This document shows, piece after piece, positions 21,302 through 47,407 of a stretch of DNA of 64,000 bases; the stretch's first letter is position 1; each line of letters begins with the position of its first letter. The notes under the pieces are model-generated. The model did not search any database. It was not told the DNA's origin and was given only the letters and a program-made list of their open reading frames with translations. This stretch comes from Bacteroidales bacterium (GTDB taxonomy: Bacteria; Bacteroidota; Bacteroidia; Bacteroidales; F082), in NCBI GenBank assembly GCA_017539045.1, contig JAFYHS010000012.1:109124-173123 (forward strand), written 5' to 3'. Both the position numbers and the translations under genes were made by a program.

Positions 21302-21367
21302 CAAGATTAATATGCCTTATTAGGCAATTTTGTATATGGTTGAATTAGAGTTCGTTAAGTAATCTTG

Positions 21368-23104
21368 ATGGGACTTAGGAGGCGGAGCTGTATCATGACG
21401 GAAACAAGCATTTTCATATCAAAGGCGACAAAAAGAAACTGGGACAAGCTGAAAAACAATGGTGATGACCGCCTGACGCGTAGGGCCAATAAGAGTCGTT
21501 CGCAGAAGGTCATCGTCCCCGACAGCTATGTCATAGCGGGCAGTCTGCCCCGTTTCGTGGAGGAACTGAGGCAACAGTGTCATCCCATCAACGACCTGAT
21601 TTTTAGCCTTTGTGCGATGAAGATTGAGCACAACAAGGTGAACGAGGCCAACGCCAAGCGTTTCTTTGAGGAGTATACCCATTATCAGCGTCTCGACCTT
21701 GAGGTGCCGCGACAGATCCTGAAGAACCGTTTCGACGACTGGATCGGCTTCGTGTATCAGTCGCTGACCGCCGAAGGTCGCCGTATCATGACGGGCTTGT
21801 ATTACACCAGCCCGACCATCGTCGACGAGATGCTGTCGGATGTGGAAGTGGTGGAGAACCAACGCTTCCTCGACCCCTGCTGCGGCAGCGGCATCTTCCT
21901 GATGAAGGCCAACGGCGCTCGCCCCGAACAGCTCTATGGCATCGACAACGACCCTCTCGCCGTGATGATCGCCAAAGCCAACCTCCTGGTGAAATTCAAT
22001 GATTCGGAGGTCTATCCCCAAATTTATCAGCTGGACTTCTTGTTGCATGCCGCTTCGGCTTTGGCAGGTTTGAAGTTCGATTACATCGTCACCAATCCGC
22101 CGTGGGGTAGTGAGAAACAAAGACATCATTCCTCGGAGATCATCTCCTCGAACGAACAGTCGACCTTGTTCTTCACTGAGTCATTCAAATTCCTGAACGC
22201 CAACGGGATATTGCATTTCTTGCTTCCCACCTCAGTGCTGAAGATCAAGGTTCATGCCGACTTCCGCCGTTTTGTCGGTCAGTCCACGAGCCTCGACACC
22301 ATCAAATGCTACCATGAGCGTTTCAAGGGTGTTTTCACCGATTTCATCAGCATGAAAGTCAGGAATAAAGCGGTGGAAGGAAGTCAGACCTATCTGGTGA
22401 AGACGGCCCACAACGAAGTCTACCGAAAGACATGGCAGGTGCAAGACGATGGCTTCTGCGCCATCCCCATGCTCGACGACCGCATCGAAGCCATCCTCAA
22501 CAAGGCGGAATGCCTGCGCCACGACGACCTCTCGCACAGCCAATGGGCGCTTGGCATCATCACAGGCAACAACGCCAAGGTGTTGAAGACTCGTCCGCGC
22601 AAAGGTTTGGAGCCCATCTATACGGGCAAGGACATCATCAAATATGGCTTGAAGAGAGCTAACCGTTATATCAAGTATAATCGCGTCGATTTCCAGCAGT
22701 GCGCCAAGGACGAGTTCTATCGCGCTAAGGAGAAACTGGTGTATAAGTTCGTGTCGAGTCGCCTCTGTTTCACCTACGACGACAAGCAGCGCCTCTTCCT
22801 CAACAGTGCCAACATCCTCATCCCCGAGGTAGACGGCATGAGTACCAAGACCGTGTTGGCGTTCCTGAACTCGGCGTTGTTTAACTTCTTGTATGCCAAA
22901 CGGTTTAATGATATCAAGATCCTCAAGGGCAACCTCTCGTCTTTGCCTTTCCCGAAGATCAGCGCTGAGCAAGACCAACAACTCTCAGCCTTAGTCGACC
23001 GTGCCTTGAAGGGCGATGTAGAAGCACAAGATGAGATGGATAGTTTGATTTATGATCTGTATCAGTTTGATGCAGAAGAAATAGCTTTAGTAAACTCGAT
23101 ATGA
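21368..23104 (+). CDS. N6-adenine DNA methyltransferase (gamma class) with a TaqI-like C-terminal target-recognition domain
   Basis: Motif I FLDPCCGSGIFL and motif IV IVTNPPWGS in gamma-class order, followed by a long C-terminal TRD. The start is ambiguous among TTG 21365, ATG 21368 and ATG 21395. The stop overlaps the galE start (ATGA at 23101-23104). Confidence 0.8.
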   Translation: MGLRRRSCIMTETSIFISKATKRNWDKLKNNGDDRLTRRANKSRSQKVIVPDSYVIAGSLPRFVEELRQQCHPINDLIFSLCAMKIEHNKVNEANAKRFFEEYTHYQRLDLEVPRQILKNRFDDWIGFVYQSLTAEGRRIMTGLYYTSPTIVDEMLSDVEVVENQRFLDPCCGSGIFLMKANGARPEQLYGIDNDPLAVMIAKANLLVKFNDSEVYPQIYQLDFLLHAASALAGLKFDYIVTNPPWGSEKQRHHSSEIISSNEQSTLFFTESFKFLNANGILHFLLPTSVLKIKVHADFRRFVGQSTSLDTIKCYHERFKGVFTDFISMKVRNKAVEGSQTYLVKTAHNEVYRKTWQVQDDGFCAIPMLDDRIEAILNKAECLRHDDLSHSQWALGIITGNNAKVLKTRPRKGLEPIYTGKDIIKYGLKRANRYIKYNRVDFQQCAKDEFYRAKEKLVYKFVSSRLCFTYDDKQRLFLNSANILIPEVDGMSTKTVLAFLNSALFNFLYAKRFNDIKILKGNLSSLPFPKISAEQDQQLSALVDRALKGDVEAQDEMDSLIYDLYQFDAEEIALVNSI

Positions 23105-24111
23105 AGATATTAGTCACAGGCGGTGCCGGTTTCATCGGCTCCCATACTTTGGTTGAACTCAACGCTGCAGGTCACGACACCGTAGTAGTCGATAACCTCA
23201 GTAACAGCAACCGCAAGTCGCTCGAGCGTGTGGCGGAACTGACAGGGAAAGAAATTCCCTTCTATGAAGTTGACATCCGCGACCGCAAAGGCCTCAACCG
23301 CGTGATGGAAGCCCATCACTTTGATGCTTGCATCCACTTCGCCGGACTGAAAGCTGTGGGCGAGAGCGTAGAGAAGCCGTGGGAATACTACGAAAACAAC
23401 ATCGGCGGCACGCTGACGCTCCTCGACGTGATGCGCCATCACGGCTGCAAGAACATCATCTTCTCTTCGTCGGCCACGGTCTACGGCGACCCAGCCATCA
23501 TCCCGATCACGGAGGAATGCCCTAAAGGACATTGCACCAATCCGTATGGCCAGACCAAGAGCATGCTCGAGGAGATTATGATGGACATGCAGAAGGCCGA
23601 CAAGGAATGGAACATCGTGCTGCTGCGCTATTTCAACCCCATCGGCGCCCACCCGAGCGGTAGGATAGGGGAGAACCCCAACGGCATCCCGAACAACTTG
23701 ATGCCTTATATAACACAAGTTGCTATTGGTAAGCGCAAGGAGTTAGGGGTTTTTGGTAACGATTACCCTACACCAGACGGTACCGGAGTTCGTGATTACA
23801 TCCACGTGTGTGACCTAGCAGCAGCACACGTTTGTGCGCTTAAGGCTATCATTCGTCAGAGTGGCATAGGAATTTATAATATTGGCACTGGTCATGGATA
23901 TAGTGTATTGGATATGGTTAAGGCGTTTATCCGCGTGAACGGAGTGGACGTTCCTTATAGCATTAAGCCACGTAGGGCTGGTGATATTGCTACTTGCTAT
24001 TGTAATCCTGCTAAAGCAAAAGCCGAACTCGGTTGGGAAGCTATATACGGTTTAGAGGAGATGGTTCGTGATAGCTGGAACTGGCAGAAAAACAACCCCA
24101 ATGGTTATTAA
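23101..24111 (+). CDS. galE: UDP-glucose 4-epimerase
   Basis: MKILVTGGAGFIGSHT...SSSATVYG...PYGQTKSM (YxxxK)...LRYFNPIGAHPSGRIGE; 336 aa. Confidence 0.95.
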   Translation: MKILVTGGAGFIGSHTLVELNAAGHDTVVVDNLSNSNRKSLERVAELTGKEIPFYEVDIRDRKGLNRVMEAHHFDACIHFAGLKAVGESVEKPWEYYENNIGGTLTLLDVMRHHGCKNIIFSSSATVYGDPAIIPITEECPKGHCTNPYGQTKSMLEEIMMDMQKADKEWNIVLLRYFNPIGAHPSGRIGENPNGIPNNLMPYITQVAIGKRKELGVFGNDYPTPDGTGVRDYIHVCDLAAAHVCALKAIIRQSGIGIYNIGTGHGYSVLDMVKAFIRVNGVDVPYSIKPRRAGDIATCYCNPAKAKAELGWEAIYGLEEMVRDSWNWQKNNPNGY

Positions 24112-24135
24112 TGTAAAGAGCCTATTCGACACAAT

Positions 24136-24177
24136 CATTCTCAAAGGAGTCATTGCGGACTCCGATCCGCAATCTCC
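24136..24177 (+). repeat. Hairpin repeat family A, copy A1
   Basis: cattctcaaaggagtcattgcggactccgatccgcaatctcc; internal stem attgcgga/tccgcaat. Lies 27 nt upstream of GIY-YIG gene 1. Confidence 0.85.
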
Positions 24178-24204
24178 TGAGCAACACGACACAACCCAAT
24201 AAAC

Positions 24205-24597
24205 ATGTCACATCAAGGCTTTGTTTACATACTAACAAACAAGTACAACACAACGTTGTATATTGGTGTGACTAATGATTTAAAACGTAGAATTGCCGAA
24301 CATAAACTCCATATTAATAGTGGGTTTAGTGACAAATACAACGTTGAAAAGCTTGTATATTACGAAACCCACGAACAAATGTATGATGCTATTTCGCGAG
24401 AGAAGCAACTGAAAAATTGGCATAGAAAGTGGAAAGAGGATTTAATAAAGGAAAACAATCCTGAGTGGAATGATTTAGCTGAAAGCATCGGTTTGGATGA
24501 AGAGTATGTGCAATCAGTAAAAGAGCATTATGAGGACATGAGTACTGCTGAAGCGTCGTCCAAAAGTGTAGGAGATTGCGGATCAAGTCCGCAATGA
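24205..24597 (+). CDS. GIY-YIG nuclease family protein (small URI-domain protein, COG2827-like) with an extended C-terminal tail
   Basis: GFVYILTNKYNTTLYIGVTNDLKRRIAEH...KLVYYETHEQMYDAISREKQLKNW covers the GIY...YIG, R and E motifs. The last 9 codons and the stop are supplied by an inverted copy of hairpin repeat family A. Confidence 0.85.
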   Translation: MSHQGFVYILTNKYNTTLYIGVTNDLKRRIAEHKLHINSGFSDKYNVEKLVYYETHEQMYDAISREKQLKNWHRKWKEDLIKENNPEWNDLAESIGLDEEYVQSVKEHYEDMSTAEASSKSVGDCGSSPQ

Positions 24598-24598
24598 C
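24571..24598 (-). repeat. Hairpin repeat family A, copy A3 (inverted)
   Basis: ggagattgcggatcaagtccgcaatgac is the reverse complement of the A1 core except in the loop. Overlaps the last codons and stop of GIY-YIG gene 1. Confidence 0.85.
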
Positions 24599-24673
24599 GT
24601 TTCACGGCGAAGTATATTCAAAATGCGCGGTTATTGTTATTACAGTTAGAAAAACCTACTTAAACAAATCATT

Positions 24674-24715
24674 CATTCTCAAAGGAGTCATTGCGGACTC
24701 CAATCCGCAATCTCC
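24674..24715 (+). repeat. Hairpin repeat family A, copy A2
   Basis: Identical to A1 over 42 nt except for one loop base (g to a). Lies 30 nt upstream of rfbA. Confidence 0.85.
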
Positions 24716-24745: not shown

Positions 24746-25672
24746 ATGAAAGGTATTGTATTAGCAGGCGGTTCTGGAACCCGTCTTTACCCCATCACCA
24801 AAGGCGTCAGCAAACAGCTGCTCCCCATCTACGACAAGCCGATGGTCTATTACCCCATCTCGGCCCTGATGCTCGCAGGCATCCGCGACATCCTCATCAT
24901 CAGCACCCCGTATGACTTGCCGGGCTTCCAGCGTTTGCTGGGCGACGGCTCCGACTACGGCGTCCACTTCGAGTATGCCGAACAGCCCTCACCCGATGGA
25001 CTGGCCCAGGCCTTCATCATCGGCGAGAAGTTCATCGGCGACGACTGCGCTTGTCTCGTGTTGGGCGACAACATCTTCTACGGCAGCGGCTTCACCAGCC
25101 TGCTTCGTAATGCTGTCAGAGACGCCGAGGAGAATAAGAAAGCCACCGTGTTTGGCTATTGGGTCAGCGACCCCGAGCGTTACGGCGTGGCCGAGTTCGA
25201 CCGCCAAGGCAACTGCCTCAGCATCGAGGAGAAGCCCAAGGAACCCAAGAGCAACTATGCCGTGGTGGGACTCTACTTCTATCCCAACAAGGTCGTCAAC
25301 GTGGCTAAGAACATCAAACCCTCGGCACGCGGAGAGTTGGAGATCACCACGGTGAACCAACGCTTCCTTGAAGACGGCGAGCTGAAGGTGCAGGTGTTTG
25401 GCCGTGGCTTCGCCTGGCTCGACACCGGAACACACGACAGCCTCTCGGAGGCCTCCACCTTCGTGGAAGTCATTGAGAAACGCCAAGGCCTGAAGATAGC
25501 TTGTCTCGAAGGCATCGCCTACCGCAACGGCTGGATCACTGAAGAGAAGATGCGTGAACTGGCCAAGCCCATGCTGAAGAACCAATACGGACAGTACCTT
25601 TTGAAGGTCATCGATGAATACAAGTCGGAGATCACTTCCGATACCTTGACGCATCCGCATAGAAACGAATAA
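24746..25672 (+). CDS. rfbA: Glucose-1-phosphate thymidylyltransferase
   Basis: [37 protein letters not shown]...[14 protein letters not shown]; a strong RmlA signature. Confidence 0.95.
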
Positions 25673-25683
25673 TAGCTTGAACC

Positions 25684-26892
25684 ATGAAAAGAACCATCAT
25701 CATCACTGGAGGCGCTGGCTTCATCGGCAATCACGTCGTTCGCCTCTTCGTCAACAAATATCCTGAATACAAGATCATCAACCTCGACAAGTTGACCTAC
25801 GCAGGCAACCTCGCCAACCTGAAGGACATCGAAGACAAGCCGAACTACCGCTTTGTCAAGATGGACATCTGCGACTTCGAGGGTGTCTACAAGTTGATGC
25901 AGGACGAACACGTCGACGGCATCATCCACCTCGCCGCCGAGAGCCATGTGGACCGCTCCATCAAAGACCCGTTCACCTTTGCGCAGACCAATGTGATGGG
26001 CACGCTGAGCCTGCTGCAGGCTGCCAAACTCTATTGGGAAGCCCAACCAGAGCCTTGGAAAGTTAAGGTCCCTGAGCCCGTCGAAGGGCCGACCATAAAA
26101 GACGGTGCTTCGACAGGCTCAGCAACCTGCGTTCCTTGCCGCTTCTACCACATCAGCACCGATGAGGTCTATGGTGCCTTGGAGCTGACCGACCCCGAAG
26201 GCATCATGCCTCCTTTCAGCACCAAGGCCAGCAGCGGACAGCACCACTTGGCCTATGGCAGCAAGTTCTTCACCGAAGACCTGAAATACCAACCCCATAG
26301 TCCCTATAGTGCCGCCAAGGCAAGCAGCGACCACTTTGTGCGCGCCTTCCACGACACCTACGGCATGCCCACGGTGGTGACCAACTGCTCCAACAACTAC
26401 GGCCCATACCAGTTCCCCGAGAAGCTGATCCCGCTGTTCATCAATAACATCCGTCACCGCAAGCCGCTGCCTGTCTACGGCAAAGGTGAGAACGTGCGCG
26501 ACTGGCTCTATGTGGAAGACCACGCCCGCGCCATCGACCTCATCTTCCATGAAGGCAAGGTGGCCGAGACCTACAACATCGGCGGCTTCAATGAGTGGAA
26601 GAACATCGACCTCATCAAGGTGTTGATCAATACCGTTGACCGCCTGCTGGGTCGTCCCGAAGGAGCCGATATGGACCTCATCACCTATGTCACCGACCGT
26701 GCCGGACATGATATGCGCTATGCCATCGACTCGACCAAACTCCAGAAAGAACTGGGTTGGGAGCCCAGCCTGCAGTTTGAGGAGGGCATTGAGAAGACCG
26801 TCCGTTGGTATCTCGATAACCAGGAATGGATGGACAACGTGACAAGTGGTGACTATCAGAAGTACTACGACGACATGTACAAAAACAGATAA
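25684..26892 (+). CDS. rfbB: dTDP-glucose 4,6-dehydratase carrying a ~20-aa in-frame repeat-derived insertion
   Basis: IIITGGAGFIGNH...HISTDEVYG...SPYSAAKASSDHFVRAF...VTNCSNNYGPYQFPEKLIP. At 402 aa it is longer than the RmlB sequences I recall. The extra segment KVPEPVEGPTIKDGASTGSAT coincides with hairpin element B1. Confidence 0.95.
   Translation: MKRTIIITGGAGFIGNHVVRLFVNKYPEYKIINLDKLTYAGNLANLKDIEDKPNYRFVKMDICDFEGVYKLMQDEHVDGIIHLAAESHVDRSIKDPFTFAQTNVMGTLSLLQAAKLYWEAQPEPWKVKVPEPVEGPTIKDGASTGSATCVPCRFYHISTDEVYGALELTDPEGIMPPFSTKASSGQHHLAYGSKFFTEDLKYQPHSPYSAAKASSDHFVRAFHDTYGMPTVVTNCSNNYGPYQFPEKLIPLFINNIRHRKPLPVYGKGENVRDWLYVEDHARAIDLIFHEGKVAETYNIGGFNEWKNIDLIKVLINTVDRLLGRPEGADMDLITYVTDRAGHDMRYAIDSTKLQKELGWEPSLQFEEGIEKTVRWYLDNQEWMDNVTSGDYQKYYDDMYKNR
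26067..26127 (+). repeat. Palindromic repeat family B, copy B1 (inside rfbB)
   Basis: ggtccctgagcccgtcgaagggccgacc-ataaaa-gacggtgcttcgacaggctcagcaacc, with imperfectly complementary arms. Confidence 0.8.
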
Positions 26893-32393: not shown

Positions 32394-33788
32394 ATGTTCA
32401 ACAAAACTGACCCATCCTACTTTGACGGTCCATGGACCTTCGAGAAGACCGAACACGCCGTGCTCGGCCTCTGCAAGATCATCGATCGTTATGCCCATAA
32501 GCTGACACTGGAAGACCTGCAGAACGACTCACGTTGCGCCCGCATTCCGGACCTCAGCCTCGATAGGGTGCAGGAGGTCATCGCCGCCGTGGAAGCCAAG
32601 CTCTGGCGTGGTGCTAAGTTCTTCGAGAACGAGGTGATCTATCACACTGGTCCGCATCACGACGACATCATGTTGGGTCTCATGCCCTTCATCAACAGGC
32701 AGTTGAGGACGCCTACCAATCAGGTGCATTTCGCCATCATGACCTCGGGTTATCACTCCGTCACCGATGAATTCCTTCAGAATGCCTTGGAAGACACCTT
32801 GGACTACCTGCATCAAGGCCGCATCCAGATGGTGCTTTACCCCGATTTCTTTGAGCGGGGCTACCGTTTCAAGCAGGAGAAGGACATCCACCATTACCTC
32901 GACAACGTAGCCCGCAAAAACCCCGATGAGATGCGTCGTGGCTTCTGCCATCGCATCCTTCGCGATGCCGTAGGGCTGTGGGGGCTGAAGAACGTCGCCG
33001 ATGTGGAAGCACGCTTCAGGATGGAGATCGAAAACCTCAAGGAGGGTAAGCCCAACAGCAGTGAGCTCCAGAAGCTCAAAGGCGAGATCCGTGAGTTTGA
33101 AGAGGAGCTCGTCTGGGCCTATGCCGGCACCGCCTTGGACCATATCCATCATCTGAGGTTAGGGTTGTATGAAAGTAAAAGCGAGGTGCCTGAGCCTGTC
33201 GAAGGCCCGACTAATAATGAACCGGCCCTTCGACAAGCTCAGGGACCTTGGTCTCCCAACCGTCAGCGTGACGTCGAGCCCATCCTCAATCAATTGCGTG
33301 CGCTGAAGCCCACCGTCATCACCGTAGCCATTGACTCGGAGGGTCAAGGACCCAACACGCACTACAAGGTCATGCAGAGCATCGCCGAGGCCGTCAGGCT
33401 GTGGGGCGAGGAGGCCGACCTCAGCCAGCTGAGGATCTTCGGCTACCGTAACGTGTGGTCGACCTTCCATCCTGCTGAGGCCAACGTATACGTGCCCGTG
33501 TCGCTCAACGCTTTTGCAGTGTTCGAGAAGGCCTTCAAAGACAGTTACCTGACGCAATATAAGGCAGAGTTTCCCAATCCCGACTTCGACGGACCTTTCA
33601 GCGAGCTGGCGGAGCAGATTTGGGTGAAGAACTATAAGGATATCCAGTTCATCCTCGGGAAGAACTTCTTCTACGAAAACGACCACCCGCTCATTCGCGC
33701 CACGCATGGACTGATTTTCTTGAAGGAAATGGACGCGAAGGACTTTGTGGGCTTGGCGGAGGAGATGAAACAAAAGATAAATGTGTAG
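32394..33788 (+). CDS. PIG-L/LmbE-like domain protein (related to the C-terminal half of long Bacteroidales NagB-type proteins), carrying an in-frame repeat insertion
   Basis: HTGPHHDDIMLG resembles the PIG-L HPDD motif, and DSEGQGPNTHYK resembles the second conserved block as I recall it. The segment VPEPVEGPTNNEPALRQAQGPW coincides with hairpin element B2. Confidence 0.45.
   Translation: MFNKTDPSYFDGPWTFEKTEHAVLGLCKIIDRYAHKLTLEDLQNDSRCARIPDLSLDRVQEVIAAVEAKLWRGAKFFENEVIYHTGPHHDDIMLGLMPFINRQLRTPTNQVHFAIMTSGYHSVTDEFLQNALEDTLDYLHQGRIQMVLYPDFFERGYRFKQEKDIHHYLDNVARKNPDEMRRGFCHRILRDAVGLWGLKNVADVEARFRMEIENLKEGKPNSSELQKLKGEIREFEEELVWAYAGTALDHIHHLRLGLYESKSEVPEPVEGPTNNEPALRQAQGPWSPNRQRDVEPILNQLRALKPTVITVAIDSEGQGPNTHYKVMQSIAEAVRLWGEEADLSQLRIFGYRNVWSTFHPAEANVYVPVSLNAFAVFEKAFKDSYLTQYKAEFPNPDFDGPFSELAEQIWVKNYKDIQFILGKNFFYENDHPLIRATHGLIFLKEMDAKDFVGLAEEMKQKINV
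33185..33247 (+). repeat. Palindromic repeat family B, copy B2 (inside the PIG-L-like gene)
   Basis: ggtgcctgagcctgtcgaaggcccgac-taataatgaa-ccggcccttcgacaagctcagggacc. The arms pair at 19 of 21 positions by my count. Confidence 0.85.
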
Positions 33789-33791
33789 TTT

Positions 33792-33850
33792 AAGCCGCCT
33801 ATGTCATTCCAAGCGGAGGATGTGCGACTGGAATCTATAGGCGGCGGCTT
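33792..33850 (+). repeat. Hairpin repeat family C, copy C-c
   Basis: aagccgcctatgtcattccaagcggaggatgtgcgactggaatctataggcggcggctt; outer stem gccgcctat/ataggcggc and inner stem attcca/tggaat. Confidence 0.8.
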
Positions 33851-33873: not shown

Positions 33874-34155
33874 TTGAATCAGTATTGGGTATATATGATG
33901 CAGAGTGCTAATGGACGAGCACTATATACAGGAGTCACAAACGACCTAGTTCGTCGTGTTGGAGAGCATAAAGAGGGCAAAGGGTCCTTTTTTACTGCAA
34001 AGTATAAATGTCATAAATTGGTTTATTATGAAGATTTTGGTTTGATGGACCAAGCCATTCTTAGAGAGAAGGAAATAAAGAATATGACACGGGCAGATAA
34101 AGAAAAGCTTATTGATACTATCAATCCACAACGACTAGATCTATTAGAACAATAA
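33874..34155 (+). CDS. GIY-YIG nuclease family protein (small URI-domain protein, COG2827-like)
   Basis: YWVYMMQSANGRALYTGVTNDLVRRVGEH...KLVYYEDFGLMDQAILREKEIKNM; 93 aa. The TTG start from the track preserves the first beta-strand. Sits between family C hairpins. Confidence 0.8.
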   Translation: MNQYWVYMMQSANGRALYTGVTNDLVRRVGEHKEGKGSFFTAKYKCHKLVYYEDFGLMDQAILREKEIKNMTRADKEKLIDTINPQRLDLLEQ

Positions 34156-34160
34156 AGATA

Positions 34161-34211
34161 GCCTTCCATGTCATTCCAAGTGGAGGTTGTGTGACTGGAA
34201 TCTATGGAAGG
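34161..34211 (+). repeat. Hairpin repeat family C, copy C-d
   Basis: gccttccatgtcattccaagtggaggttgtgtgactggaatctatggaaggc. The core is nearly identical to C-c, and the outer stem differs but still pairs. Confidence 0.8.
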
Positions 34212-34251
34212 CGGCATGAAAGAAAAGACATTAAATATATGACGGTATTAT

Positions 34252-34300
34252 AAAGCATAGATTCCAAACGCACGTTCCCCTGCAAGGAATGACATGCTTT
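34252..34300 (-). repeat. Hairpin repeat family C, copy C-e (inverted relative to C-d)
   Basis: aaagcatagattccaaacgcacgttcccctgcaaggaatgacatgcttt. Its reverse complement shares catgtcattcc...tggaatctatg with C-d. Confidence 0.75.
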
Positions 34301-44357: not shown

Positions 44358-45347
44358 ATGCTCACCATCATCTGCCCCATCTACAACGAAGAAAAATACA
44401 TTGCCCGTTGCATTGAGAGCATATTGCGGCAGGATTATCCCAAAGATGATTTGGAAGTCCTTTTTGTGGATGGTATGAGTACCGACCACACAAGGGAAAT
44501 CATTGCCTCTTACCTGCCGCAATGCCCCTTTCTGCGTGTGCTCGACAATCCGCACAAGATTGTGCCTTACGCCATGAACAAAGGCATCAGCGAGGCCAAG
44601 GGCGATATCATCATGCGCATCGATGCACATACCTTCTATGAACCCAACTACTGCTCGGCCATCGTGAAAAGACTGAAGGAACTAGATGCCGACAATGTGG
44701 GTTGCGTGTGCAAGACGGATGTGCTTAACAAGACTTCCAAGACCTTGGCCATCCGCGAGGTGCTGAGCAACAAGTTCGGTGTGGGCAACTCGGCTTTTCG
44801 CACGGGCATCGAAGGGGTCAAAGAAGTAGACACGGTGCCTTTCGGCTGCTGGCCGAAGAGGGTGTTCGAAAAATATGGTCTATATGATGTACGTTTGGTG
44901 CGTAACCAAGACATTGAGCTGAGCAAGCGCATCATCAACGGTGGTGGTAAAATCTATATCATCCCCGATACCTTCTGCACCTATCTGGCGCGTGAGACTT
45001 TCAGCGACTTGGCCAAAAATAACTTCGGCAACGGCAAATGGAATATTCTCACGGTGTATTACACCCGTCAGATGAAGTCTTTGTCGCTACGCCATTTCAT
45101 CCCGTTGCTGTTTGTGTTGGGAGTCATCCTTCCTGCTTTAGTAGGCCTATTCTGGCATCCTGCTTTACTGTTGTCTGCTTTTGTACTACTTGTCTATTTG
45201 GTGGCTTTGTGCGGCATAAGTGCCCAACTCGCTGTTCAGAAGCATCTGAACTCTTTCTATCTCCTCTGGAGCTTCATCACCTTGCATTGCAGCTACGGAT
45301 GGGGGTCGCTAGTAGGTCTTCTTTCTTTGCCATTCAAAAAACGATAA
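44358..45347 (+). CDS. Glycosyltransferase family 2
   Basis: LTIICPIYNEEKYIARCIESILRQDYPKDDLEVLFVDGMSTDHTREII...RIDAH; C-terminal transmembrane spans. Confidence 0.9.
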   Translation: MLTIICPIYNEEKYIARCIESILRQDYPKDDLEVLFVDGMSTDHTREIIASYLPQCPFLRVLDNPHKIVPYAMNKGISEAKGDIIMRIDAHTFYEPNYCSAIVKRLKELDADNVGCVCKTDVLNKTSKTLAIREVLSNKFGVGNSAFRTGIEGVKEVDTVPFGCWPKRVFEKYGLYDVRLVRNQDIELSKRIINGGGKIYIIPDTFCTYLARETFSDLAKNNFGNGKWNILTVYYTRQMKSLSLRHFIPLLFVLGVILPALVGLFWHPALLLSAFVLLVYLVALCGISAQLAVQKHLNSFYLLWSFITLHCSYGWGSLVGLLSLPFKKR

Positions 45348-45353
45348 TCCCAC

Positions 45354-46004
45354 ATGTTCCTCAAATTCCTCTTCGACCGCCTCCTTTCCTTCCTTGGCCT
45401 TATCGTCCTTTCGCCGGTGATGCTGGTCGTGGCTATCCTCATCATGGTTAAGATGGGCGGCCCCGTGCTGTTCAAACAGCAACGCATAGGTAAGGATGGC
45501 AAGCAGTTTACTTTGGCAAAGTTCCGAACGATGAAGGCTGACCATGGCGGATCGTCGGTGAGCGTGGCGGGAGAGAGCCGCATCACCCCCTTAGGCGCCA
45601 AATTGCGTAAATACAAGCTGGATGAGCTGCCCGAGCTGTGGAACGTGCTCAGAGGCGACATGAGCTTCGTCGGCCCGCGACCCGATGTGCCTGGCTATGC
45701 TGATAGGCTGGAAGGCGACGACCGCGAGGTCTTGCTGTTGCGCCCCGGCATCACAGGACCCGCCTCGCTGAAGTACCGCAACGAAGAAGAAATGATCGCC
45801 GAGTATGTCGCACAAGCCAAAACACAAGGCGATTCCCGCTCAGAACAAGAGATAGCACTTTGGTATAACGACAACATGATTTGGCCCGACAAAGTGCGTA
45901 TCAACCGATATTACCTGCATCACTATTCCTTTGGCATGGATTTGAAGATGATCCTTGCCACCGTGCTGGGACGTCATATTTTGTATAACGGAGAAACCAT
46001 CTAA
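45354..46004 (+). CDS. Undecaprenyl-phosphate sugar phosphotransferase (small PglC/WcfS-type initiating transferase)
   Basis: LSPVMLVVAILIMVKMGGPVLFKQQRIGKDGKQFTLAKFRTM...DELPELWNVLRGDMSFVGPRP is the bacterial sugar transferase signature; 216 aa. Confidence 0.9.
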   Translation: MFLKFLFDRLLSFLGLIVLSPVMLVVAILIMVKMGGPVLFKQQRIGKDGKQFTLAKFRTMKADHGGSSVSVAGESRITPLGAKLRKYKLDELPELWNVLRGDMSFVGPRPDVPGYADRLEGDDREVLLLRPGITGPASLKYRNEEEMIAEYVAQAKTQGDSRSEQEIALWYNDNMIWPDKVRINRYYLHHYSFGMDLKMILATVLGRHILYNGETI

Positions 46005-47407
46005 TGATCAAAAAACGCATCTACCTCTGCCTCGCTCATATGAGCGACGCAGGCCTCGAACAGAAATATATACAAGAGGCCTTCGACACCAACTGGGTGG
46101 TGCCGCTGGGACCCAATGTCAATGGGTTTGAAAAGGACCTGGAGTCCTTTGTGAATGAGATTAAGGTCCCTGAGCTTGTCGAAGGGCCGACCTTCAATGA
46201 CGGCATTTCGACAGGCTCAACGACCTGCTTAAACAAACGTGTTGTTGCTCTCTCCGCCGGCACGGCGGCCATCCATCTCGCCTTAATCGCCTGCGGCGTG
46301 GGCCCTGGCGACGAGGTCATCGTGCAGTCGTTCACCTTCTGCGCCTCGTCCAACCCTATCACCTACCTCGGCGCGACCCCCGTCTTCGTCGACAGCGAGA
46401 AGGACTCGTGGAACATCGACCCCGAGCTGATGGAAGAGGCCATCCGCGACCGCATCGCCAAGACGGGCCGTAAGCCCAAGGCCATCGTGCCCGTGGCGCT
46501 CTATGGCATGCCTTACGACATCGACCGTATCATGGAGATTGCCAACCGCTACGACATCCCCGTCATCGAAGACGCCGCCGAAGGCTTCGGCAGCCGCTGG
46601 AAGGGACAGGTGCTGGGCACCTTCGGCCGTTATGGCGTACTCTCCTTCAACGGTAACAAGATGATCACCACCTCGGGTGGCGGCGCACTCATCTGCCCCG
46701 ACACACAGGCTTGGCAGCGCATCATGTGGCTGGCCACACAAGCCCGCGAGGCCTACCCTTATTACCAACATGAGGCCATTGGCTACAACTACCGCATGTC
46801 GAACATCTGCGCCGGCATCGGCCGTGGACAGATGACCGTCGCCAATGACCATATCAACCACCACAAGCATGTGCAGAAGATGTATGAGGAGCTGCTGGCT
46901 GGTGTGCTGGGCATACATGTCCACTCGCAGCCTTGTTCCCTTTACGACCGTCATGCCGGACTTGATCCGGCATCTCATGAGATTGCGGGTCAAGCCCGCA
47001 ATGACGGTATGCAGGGTGAGAAGTACGACAGTAACTATTGGTTATGCACCATCACCCTCGACCCAAGCCTGCACGTCAAAGGACAAGAAAACGCCTATAA
47101 GACCGTTATACAAGGTGCGGTAGGTGGTGCGGCAGGCGTGGTTCATGCCAGCAAGAGCGCCCACACCGACTGCGAGCCCAACGCCAACGTGGAGGCCTTG
47201 CGCGTCATCCTCGACCAGGCGGGCATCGAGGCAAGGCCCTTATGGAAGCCCATGCATAAACAGCCCGTCTATAAAGACGCTCCTGCCTATGTCAACGGCG
47301 TCAGCGAAAGCCTCTTCAAGGTAGGCATGTGCCTGCCCAGTGGCCCCTGTGTCAGCGACGAGGACGTGGACTATATCGTAACGTGTATCAAAAACGCTAT
47401 CATCTAA
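46004..47407 (+). CDS. DegT/DnrJ/EryC1-family sugar aminotransferase (PglE/WcfR-like) carrying two in-frame repeat-derived insertions
   Basis: EQKYIQEAFDTNWVVPLGPNV...ALSAGTAAIHLAL...SFNGNKMITTSGGGAL (PLP Lys)...YNYRMSNI...RPLWKPMHKQPVY. At 467 aa it is about 90 aa longer than family members I recall. Confidence 0.9.
   Translation: MIKKRIYLCLAHMSDAGLEQKYIQEAFDTNWVVPLGPNVNGFEKDLESFVNEIKVPELVEGPTFNDGISTGSTTCLNKRVVALSAGTAAIHLALIACGVGPGDEVIVQSFTFCASSNPITYLGATPVFVDSEKDSWNIDPELMEEAIRDRIAKTGRKPKAIVPVALYGMPYDIDRIMEIANRYDIPVIEDAAEGFGSRWKGQVLGTFGRYGVLSFNGNKMITTSGGGALICPDTQAWQRIMWLATQAREAYPYYQHEAIGYNYRMSNICAGIGRGQMTVANDHINHHKHVQKMYEELLAGVLGIHVHSQPCSLYDRHAGLDPASHEIAGQARNDGMQGEKYDSNYWLCTITLDPSLHVKGQENAYKTVIQGAVGGAAGVVHASKSAHTDCEPNANVEALRVILDQAGIEARPLWKPMHKQPVYKDAPAYVNGVSESLFKVGMCLPSGPCVSDEDVDYIVTCIKNAII
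46165..46225 (+). repeat. Palindromic repeat family B, copy B3 (inside the aminotransferase gene)
   Basis: ggtccctgagcttgtcgaagggccgacc-ttcaatga-cggcatttcgacaggctcaacgacc. Confidence 0.8.
46950..47005. repeat. Composite of two family A-like hairpins in opposite orientation, located inside the aminotransferase CDS
   Basis: gtcatgccggacttgatccggcatc + tcatga + gattgcgggtcaagcccgcaatgac. Translated in frame as RHAGLDPASHEIAGQARNDG. Confidence 0.8.

Follow-up and report, generated by a model that had tools for sequence, protein, structure and literature searches.

A GIY-YIG nuclease gene flanked by hairpin repeats in a Bacteroidales genome, a probable Ssn/SRM unit

The ssn1 locus and its hairpins

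The stretch of Bacteroidales DNA analyzed here (64,000 nucleotides (nt) of contig JAFYHS010000012.1, positions 109,124 to 173,123; the window hereafter) includes a small gene, called ssn1, which encodes a GIY-YIG nuclease and is accompanied by three copies (A1, A2 and A3) of a hairpin repeat. Gene and hairpins resemble the Ssn nucleases and the SRM repeats described in Neisseria, and these names are used below. The locus is made up by the following features.

23101-24111: galE-like epimerase gene, flanking ssn1
24132-24177, + strand: SRM copy A1, a 17-nt conserved 5' flank followed by the hairpin core (24149-24176)
24205-24597, + strand: ssn1 open reading frame (ORF), 130 amino acids (aa), single-domain GIY-YIG nuclease, putatively of the Ssn type
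24571-24598, - strand: SRM copy A3, inverted with respect to A1, overlapping the 3' end of ssn1
24670-24715, + strand: SRM copy A2, direct repeat of A1, 31 nt before rfbA
24746-25672: rfbA-like NTP-transferase (nucleotidyltransferase) gene, flanking ssn1

The core of A1 has the layout GTC-ATTGCGGA-loop-TCCGCAAT-CTC, and is located 28 nt upstream of the ssn1 start, with the tag directed away from the gene. A1 and A2 form a 46-nt direct repeat, 96% identical, the two copies being 538 nt apart. Both are reverse-complementary to residues 24570-24598 at the end of ssn1, where A3 codes for the peptide GDCGSSPQ and for the TGA stop of the gene. The initial annotation of this DNA had described a 42-nt repeat, the copies of which differ at one loop base only; this is present at 24136-24177 and 24674-24715, as part of the longer repeat. 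The nuclease gene between inverted hairpins, the additional copy A2, and the location of the whole between the galE-like and rfbA-like genes were all found as described. The inverted hairpin at the end of the ORF had also been placed correctly, stop codon included, but contributes eight sense codons, not nine.

Two more hairpins of the same type form an inverted doublet at 46950-47005. All five hairpins of the window conform to the scheme GTC-AT[6 bp]-loop-[6 bp]AT-C, with an 8-bp stem in which AT comes first, a loop of 5-6 nt and the tail CTC. The tag is CGTC in three of the five, AGTC in A1 and A2. Stems vary among copies by compensating changes (TGCCGGA/TCCGGCA, TTGCGGA/TCCGCAA, TTGCGGG/CCCGCAA), tag and tail being constant. 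Folded as single-stranded DNA (ssDNA), the hairpins reach energies between -8 and -11 kcal/mol (z-scores between -4 and -6); values for A1, which features an outer GGAG/CTCC stem, are -11.4 kcal/mol and z = -4.3. A strict hairpin pattern was found twice in the window vs. 0.06 expected, and five copies were identified by a general detector, which requires the GTC tag, a stem starting with AT and the C; no copy was seen in any of 20 shuffles. The presence of these hairpins is not due to chance.

A2 is followed by CTCCATTTTT, and hence also looks like an intrinsic terminator. The T-run and the terminator-like score of A2, along with the location of hairpins between genes of the same transcription direction, would suit ordinary RNA-level elements, terminators or mRNA stabilizers, two of which surround a GIY-YIG gene by chance. 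This explanation is very improbable. A1 and A3 have no T-run, hairpins are found also in frame inside coding sequence, and tag and tail stay the same whatever the stem, the two arms of which co-vary. A scan of residues 23000-26000 against Rfam at a permissive threshold retrieved a chance microRNA match only, and no known RNA family.

The Ssn1 protein matches PF01541 over residues 5-78 (E = 5.5e-18), and has no other significant Pfam domain. Residues Y8, Y19 and E66, predicted to be catalytic, are spaced (11/47) exactly as the catalytic residues Y6, Y17 and E64 of SsnA from N. meningitidis (PMC11893778). These positions are invariant in the alignment of homologues. The AlphaFold2 model (pLDDT 85.6) features a GIY-YIG core, a confident extra C-terminal helix (residues 99-118), and a disordered tail (120-130), which is mostly read-through of the hairpin (residues 123-130 are SRM-encoded). 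Of the 30 homologues aligned, about 20 retain the GDCGSSPQ tail, which persists down to about 60% identity. Over its first ~95 residues, Ssn1 shares 50-59% identity (E = 1e-34 to 1e-37) with proteins of 95-97 aa encoded at three loci (L159, L175 and L207), each bracketed by motifs matching exactly the consensus of NTS, the hairpin repeat of Neisseria. Relatives of Ssn1 number thousands, mostly on very short contigs, the closest named ones being found in Prevotella and in Bacteroidales metagenome-assembled genomes (MAGs).

No chain at E <= 0.01 was retrieved by searching the PDB with the Ssn1 sequence. The nearest folds found by Foldseek are UPF0213 BH0048 (1ZG2; E = 1e-3) and then Slx1, and no Ssn structure was met among the PDB entries searched by sequence and Foldseek. 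UPF0213/YhbQ and Slx1 proteins have in common with Ssn1 the small GIY-YIG core, but Ssn1 is distinguished by the motif set …GFT.KY…REKQLK.W.R.WK..LI…NP.W.DL. Neither family is known to be associated with hairpin repeats.

In a variant of the explanation given above, equally improbable, ssn1 would be a free-standing homing endonuclease targeting the hairpins. The match to the group I intron endonuclease family TIGR01453, the only one obtained in NCBIfam, could be taken in its favor. Yet this match spans residues 5-38 only and scores 23.6 bits, far under the cut-off of 56.05, and Ssn1 has no DNA-binding domain. Identification with homing endonucleases (I-TevI type) was therefore rejected.

Hairpins at the ends of homologous genes

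The association of hairpins with genes of the family was monitored by applying the general detector to 80 metagenomic loci, encoding relatives 44-68% identical. The density of hairpins more than 200 nt away from the gene in the same loci (0.114 per kb) was taken as background. A hairpin resides within 200 nt upstream of the gene in 30 of the 80 loci, vs. 1.8 expected (binomial tail 1e-28), and in the interval from -45 to +200 of the stop in 41, vs. 2.2 expected (binomial tail 5e-42). Hairpins are found at both gene ends in 24 loci. Overall, gene ends are enriched about 17-fold. Hairpin enrichment beside GIY-YIG homologues, suggested in the initial annotation as a check, is thus strong on both sides of the gene.

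Orientation is not random. The nearest upstream copy is in the + orientation in 24/30 loci, the nearest downstream copy in the - orientation in 34/41, so that tags point outward, just like those of solo doublets. In 14 of the 41 loci the 3' copy and the stop codon overlap, as at ssn1. Stem sequences are diverse among loci (TTCCCGCG, TGCTGAAC, TCGCCCGG, TTGCGGGC and others). Stems of the upstream and downstream hairpins of a gene differ on average at 1.04 of 8 positions, vs. 3.05 between loci, a figure reached in none of 10000 permutations (0/10000). Both the specific enrichment at ssn gene ends and the matching of stems across the gene are at odds with RNA-level elements.

Close homologues retain both hairpins in syntenic (L132 and L133) as in non-syntenic (L131) settings. 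A homologue 72% identical occupies the same position, linked to a methyltransferase gene and to galE, in a relative with 89.6% identity in GalE; both the upstream and the stop-codon hairpin are present. The conservation of this position at such levels of GalE and Ssn identity argues for a long vertical inheritance. The exact Ssn1 protein was found in the galE context in every occurrence, and several assemblies stop precisely at its 3' hairpin, as a multicopy sequence would make them do. A homologue 75% identical resides in an unrelated context (L131), and features the same three-hairpin layout A1-gene-A3-A2. A more distant homologue, 66% identical, borders on variable defence islands, and several CCTC-tagged variant copies (TCATTCCGGA…TCCGGAATC) flank it.

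An identical Ssn homologue (P0060) is found at L134-L143 after a mannose-6-phosphate isomerase gene, and borders alternative defence-type islands. Reverse transcriptase, SLATT and DprA-like genes are found in the island in some of the contigs; other contigs have AAA_15/AAA_21 ATPases instead.

In the reverse search, genomes, one for each species, were scanned with the exact TTGCGG hairpin, yielding at least 120 loci; among the matches listed, most are from Bacteroidota, with other phyla in addition, and 1 of 162 hairpins overlaps a GIY-YIG gene. A single overlap could initially be taken as evidence against an association, but is what is predicted if the repeat is scattered over a genome which has one enzyme gene, or a few. 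Enrichment is evident from gene to hairpin, which is the informative direction of the test.

The exact TTGCGG hairpin, in which 20 bases are specified, was also found, among the matches listed, in MAGs assigned to Endomicrobia, Defluviitaleaceae, Sulfurovum, Pirellulaceae and Burkholderiaceae. Horizontal spread and binning error cannot be told apart as the source of these copies in distant phyla. Several record names of these MAGs look like sample identifiers, presumably from termite gut. In a Chitinophagaceae MAG (L051, 847-1251), five same-strand hairpins are clustered at irregular spacing within 400 nt, an arrangement which recalls the NIME/NTS clusters of Neisseria.

Ssn/SRM units, REP sequences and the likely role of Ssn1

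The pairing of a small GIY-YIG nuclease with its own hairpin repeat was already published in 2025 by Chenal et al. (Nat Commun, PMC11893778), and the ssn1 locus is, on the reading given below, a further example from Bacteroidales. SsnA of N. meningitidis is a 94-aa single-domain GIY-YIG protein (CDD cd10448). It binds the NTS hairpin (CGTCATTCCCGCGMAVGCGGGAATCYRG) as ssDNA only, and that strand only, and cuts a few nucleotides upstream of it; no action was seen on RNA or double-stranded DNA, which is a further argument against RNA-level elements. The three bases (GTC) preceding the palindrome are required for cutting, the C following it for binding. SsnA reduces transformation by NTS-bearing DNA about 5-fold, and three Ssn homologues cleave their own motifs. 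SRMs are found near 71% of the homologous genes, on both sides in 42%; NTS copies are intragenic in 2% of cases in N. meningitidis. The NTS-ssnA-NTS arrangement was likened by the authors to insertion sequence elements and to the RAYT/REP (REP-associated tyrosine transposase/repetitive extragenic palindromic sequence) pairs, and its domestication was proposed (PMC11893778). Nothing altering this picture was found in the later literature covered. Literature linking GIY-YIG proteins to REP, REPIN, RAYT or MITE was searched for and none found, while GIY-YIG combined with dRS3/CGTC leads to the same paper.

The ssn1 locus shares with Ssn/SRM units a small single-domain GIY-YIG protein, the Y-11-Y-47-E spacing and inverted flanking hairpins, and the hairpins of the window feature the 5' GTC tag and an AT-first stem followed by C. 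Additional traits in common are dispersed singlets and inverted doublets, copies near surface-structure genes, and one hairpin type per paralogue. Hence the locus is best read, with a probability of about 0.8, as an Ssn/SRM unit, made up by the gene of a small single-domain nuclease and by copies of the hairpin which the enzyme would recognize. This reading rests on features observed here, namely the architecture of the locus, the association throughout the family, the orientation rule, the end-to-end matching of stems and the conservation of the catalytic residues. A nuclease-plus-hairpin system built on a GIY-YIG enzyme, selfish or domesticated, is what had been supposed initially, and it corresponds to the system described experimentally by Chenal et al. 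The work of 2025 makes outdated the accompanying statement that such small GIY-YIG proteins have no assigned function. The COG2827/UPF0213-type label should also be dropped, as the protein appears to go with the cd10448-type Ssn, UPF0213/YhbQ being the nearest solved fold only.

Differences were noted as well. The 3' SRM of ssn1 is part of the gene's coding region and contributes its stop, the doublet of the window is in frame inside a gene, and the host belongs to Bacteroidales. Other points count against placing the locus among Ssn/SRM units. The assignment of Ssn1 to the Ssn type (cd10448) is probable, and was made via proxy homologues, the 95-97-aa proteins bracketed by NTS-consensus motifs. 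At 130 aa, Ssn1 extends 35 aa beyond the characterized 94-aa enzymes, and features the extra C-terminal helix. Bacteroidota are not mentioned in the main text of PMC11893778, and natural competence, which bears on the source of ssDNA, is not established for the host. The published SRM pattern, HGTCWYN(0-2)YYVSBRHN(0-5)WNVSBRGN(0-2)RNCYNB, matches none of the five hairpins of the window, yet matches canonical NTS; its sole match in the window, at 45122, is at chance level. The stem TTGCGGA/G and the tail CTC fall outside this pattern, and the TTGCGG class is outside the stems assayed with any Ssn. The pattern was derived from 29 genomes as a search tool and does not define function, and the mismatch is taken here as a limit of the pattern rather than an exclusion from the family. 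As it misses a stem class, current censuses probably undercount the family.

Both ssDNA-specific cleavage and biological role in this host we infer only, by homology with the characterized enzymes from Neisseria, N. elongata, N. wadsworthii and Wolbachia. By analogy, Ssn1 would bind the hairpin solely in ssDNA, on the strand reading GTC-AT…AT-C, and would cut on the 5' side of the GTC tag, at a distance of a few nucleotides. Stem and following C would provide binding, the GTC triplet would license cleavage. If so, dispersed SRM copies would mark sites at which ssDNA is cut. The relevant ssDNA may arise in transformation, conjugation, replication or repair. In Neisseria, cutting at SRMs shortens the homology available, and recombination is lowered at the loci which SRMs flank. 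In this Bacteroidales genome SRM copies are located within surface-polysaccharide genes or close to them, so that a comparable influence on the exchange of these loci is the most likely function.

REP and REPIN sequences carry a GTAG tag and depend on RAYTs, Y1 HUH enzymes of the IS200/IS605 type which act through a covalent intermediate; transposition is supported for REPINs. The analogy to REP/RAYT pairs drawn in the initial annotation holds for the architecture. In both systems the enzyme gene lies between inverted copies of a hairpin, and the repeat is found elsewhere as singlets and inverted doublets. Recognition of hairpins in ssDNA, as published for Ssn/SRM, and one repeat class per paralogue are also shared. 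The analogy fails for the enzyme, a hydrolytic GIY-YIG nuclease of unrelated fold in place of a Y1 HUH transposase, and for the tag; in addition, support for transposition exists for REPINs, not for SRMs. Membership of the ssn1 locus in the REP/RAYT group was rejected because of the GIY-YIG enzyme and of a (C/A)GTC tag in place of GTAG.

A closer relationship may exist with the CGTC-tagged REPs classified by Di Nocera et al. in 2013 (PMC3733652). These elements feature a CGTC or TGTC tag, an AT-first stem of 8-9 bp, a loop of 4-5 nt and a short tail; they frequently form inverted dimers, include in-frame intragenic copies, and are found in several phyla, Bacteroidetes among them. Neisseria dRS3 and Rickettsia RPE-4/-6 belong to this set. 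No associated enzyme was found, CGTC-tagged REPs being said to "apparently lack a dedicated transposase" (PMC3733652). The hairpins of the window fit this type by tag, 8-bp AT-first stem, short loop and tail, and by the inverted doublet at 46950-47005. They differ in the tail, CTC vs. the usual CCA, and in the AGTC tag of A1 and A2 vs. CGTC. The 2013 classification is not cited in PMC11893778. That SRMs correspond to the CGTC-tagged REP superfamily, Ssn being its "missing" enzyme, may be proposed as a synthesis of the two papers, and is not a published statement.

What the locus adds is modestly new, and includes a longer (130-aa) enzyme subfamily, which extends Ssn/SRM to gut or rumen Bacteroidales, a stem class not sampled before, and, as detailed below, several enzyme/hairpin pairs and a 75-nt in-frame polymorphism.

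Further enzyme/hairpin pairs and in-frame insertions

A second Ssn-type gene, ssn2, with hairpins of its own, was identified in the window.

33794-33845, + strand: ssn2-type SRM, upstream copy, outer 9-bp stem GCCGCCTAT/ATAGGCGGC
33874-34155, + strand: ssn2, 93-aa Ssn-type GIY-YIG paralogue (E = 8e-28 vs. the family profile)
34161-34212, + strand: ssn2-type SRM, downstream copy, outer stem GCCTTCCAT/ATGGAAGGC
~34254-34299, - strand: ssn2-type SRM, inverted and more diverged copy (…GATTCC…GGAATGAC…), read directly from the sequence

Ssn2 is 48% identical to Ssn1, and has its predicted catalytic residues (Y7, Y18 and E65) at the identical 11/47 spacing. The ssn2-type SRM features a GTC tag and an ATTCCA/TGGAAT stem followed by C. 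The outer 9-bp stem is preserved between the two flanking copies by compensating substitutions. A third GIY-YIG paralogue, 91 aa long, is found at L132 (8582-8857) between the inverted halves of another repeat (GGTCCCTGAGCCTGTCGAAGGGCC). This repeat belongs to the PELVEGP-type family (core CCTGAGCCNGTCGAAGGGCC), members of which reside in genes of the window as in-frame doublets. As its copies bracket the paralogue of L132, the family probably represents a third SRM type, served by a nuclease of its own. Each paralogue carries its own hairpin type. Two to three enzyme/hairpin pairs in one genome would provide naturally orthogonal ssDNA-cutting specificities, which the discoverers of Ssn sought for biotechnology.

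Repeats with the core CCTGAGCCNGTCGAAGGGCC are usually inverted doublets, in frame, and are located at ~26060-26130 (rfbB-like ORF 25684-26892), ~33188-33250 (ORF 32394-33788), ~46165-46235 (ORF 46004-47407) and ~61960. They yield peptides such as VPEPVEGP…ALRQAQGP.

The doublet of ssn1-type hairpins is placed as follows.

46004-47407: DegT-type aminotransferase gene, host of the insertion
46939-47013: SRM doublet insertion, 75 nt, in frame, junction ambiguous by 1-2 nt
46950-46976, + strand, and 46979-47005, - strand: hairpins of the doublet, tags outward

The presence of the hairpin type inside a coding gene had been noticed at the outset; two copies are indeed found there, in frame. They encode a 25-residue segment (LYDRHAGLDPASHEIAGQARNDGMQ). 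Six of 17 aminotransferase orthologues have this segment; others, some of them 93-94% identical, lack it. The insertion was defined by using orthologues 84-94% identical, a homologue of 32% identity being too distant. Filled and empty alleles differ, at the DNA level, by a single clean 75-nt interval at ~46939-47013, and no evident target-site duplication was seen in this alignment. A second region of the protein (residues ~55-78) hosts, according to the orthologue, a PELVEGP-type doublet, a single TTGCGG SRM (EIAGQARND), the segment VETQCIASLQ, which corresponds to a third hairpin family, short tandem repeats, or none of these. Even inside one 90%-identity cluster, the proteins are between 454 and 490 aa long. 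These data show that hairpin units are rapidly gained or lost in frame; the process, and the involvement of Ssn in it, are not settled by the pattern.

One possible process is mobility. SRM singlets and doublets may be non-autonomous REPIN-like mobile DNA, i.e., CGTC-tagged REPs spread by Ssn, and may insert in frame in Bacteroidales polysaccharide genes, thus making length variants. The hairpin unit would be freed or exposed by a pair of nicks, and further copies of it would then be placed at other sites in the course of host replication or repair. In such an active selfish element, the autonomous form would be the hairpin-gene-hairpin arrangement. This hypothesis is regarded as doubtful, and is compatible with the assignment of the locus to Ssn/SRM units, mobility being either the origin of the system or a second activity of the enzyme. 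GIY-YIG nucleases hydrolyse DNA with no covalent intermediate, and cannot rejoin strands as HUH/Y1 transposases do. The lack of a visible target-site duplication, the long vertical inheritance of ssn1 beside galE and the constant galE context of the exact Ssn1 protein also speak against it. The gene lying between inverted hairpins with outward tags, as in solo doublets, is as expected for a mobile unit. The same holds true for the precise 75-nt doublet missing from close orthologues, for the alternative hairpin families found at one codon position of the aminotransferase, and for the recurrence of the three-hairpin unit at the unrelated locus L131. Assembly breaks exactly at the hairpin, as for multicopy sequence, and hairpins with 20 identical specified bases in many phyla, among the matches listed, are on the same side, as is the report of CGTC-tagged REPs with no dedicated transposase (PMC3733652). 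Presence and absence of the doublet are explained equally well by precise deletion, or by recombination between alleles. The polymorphism and the hot spot with alternative hairpin families are hence compatible with spread by Ssn nicking, and are no proof of it.

Polymorphic in-frame insertions in polysaccharide genes provide a concrete handle on repeat mobility and, together with the 2013 classification, bear on Ssn as the long-missing enzyme of the CGTC-REP superfamily. Spread by Ssn nicking, if true, would be a nuclease-only counterpart of REPIN/RAYT.

The aminotransferase orthologues (P0121-P0239) feature three indel hot spots, at residues ~55-78, ~317-341 and ~431, at which differing hairpin or tandem-repeat insertions, or none, are found. 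At 75-94% identity, these proteins are between 415 and 490 aa long.

Upstream of the ssn1 locus, an N6-adenine methyltransferase-like ORF (21365-23104) ends 4 nt inside the galE start. In the syntenic L132 the same methyltransferase has a gene call of the Eco57I/TaqI_C type, and the order methyltransferase-galE-ssn is kept in both L132 and L133.

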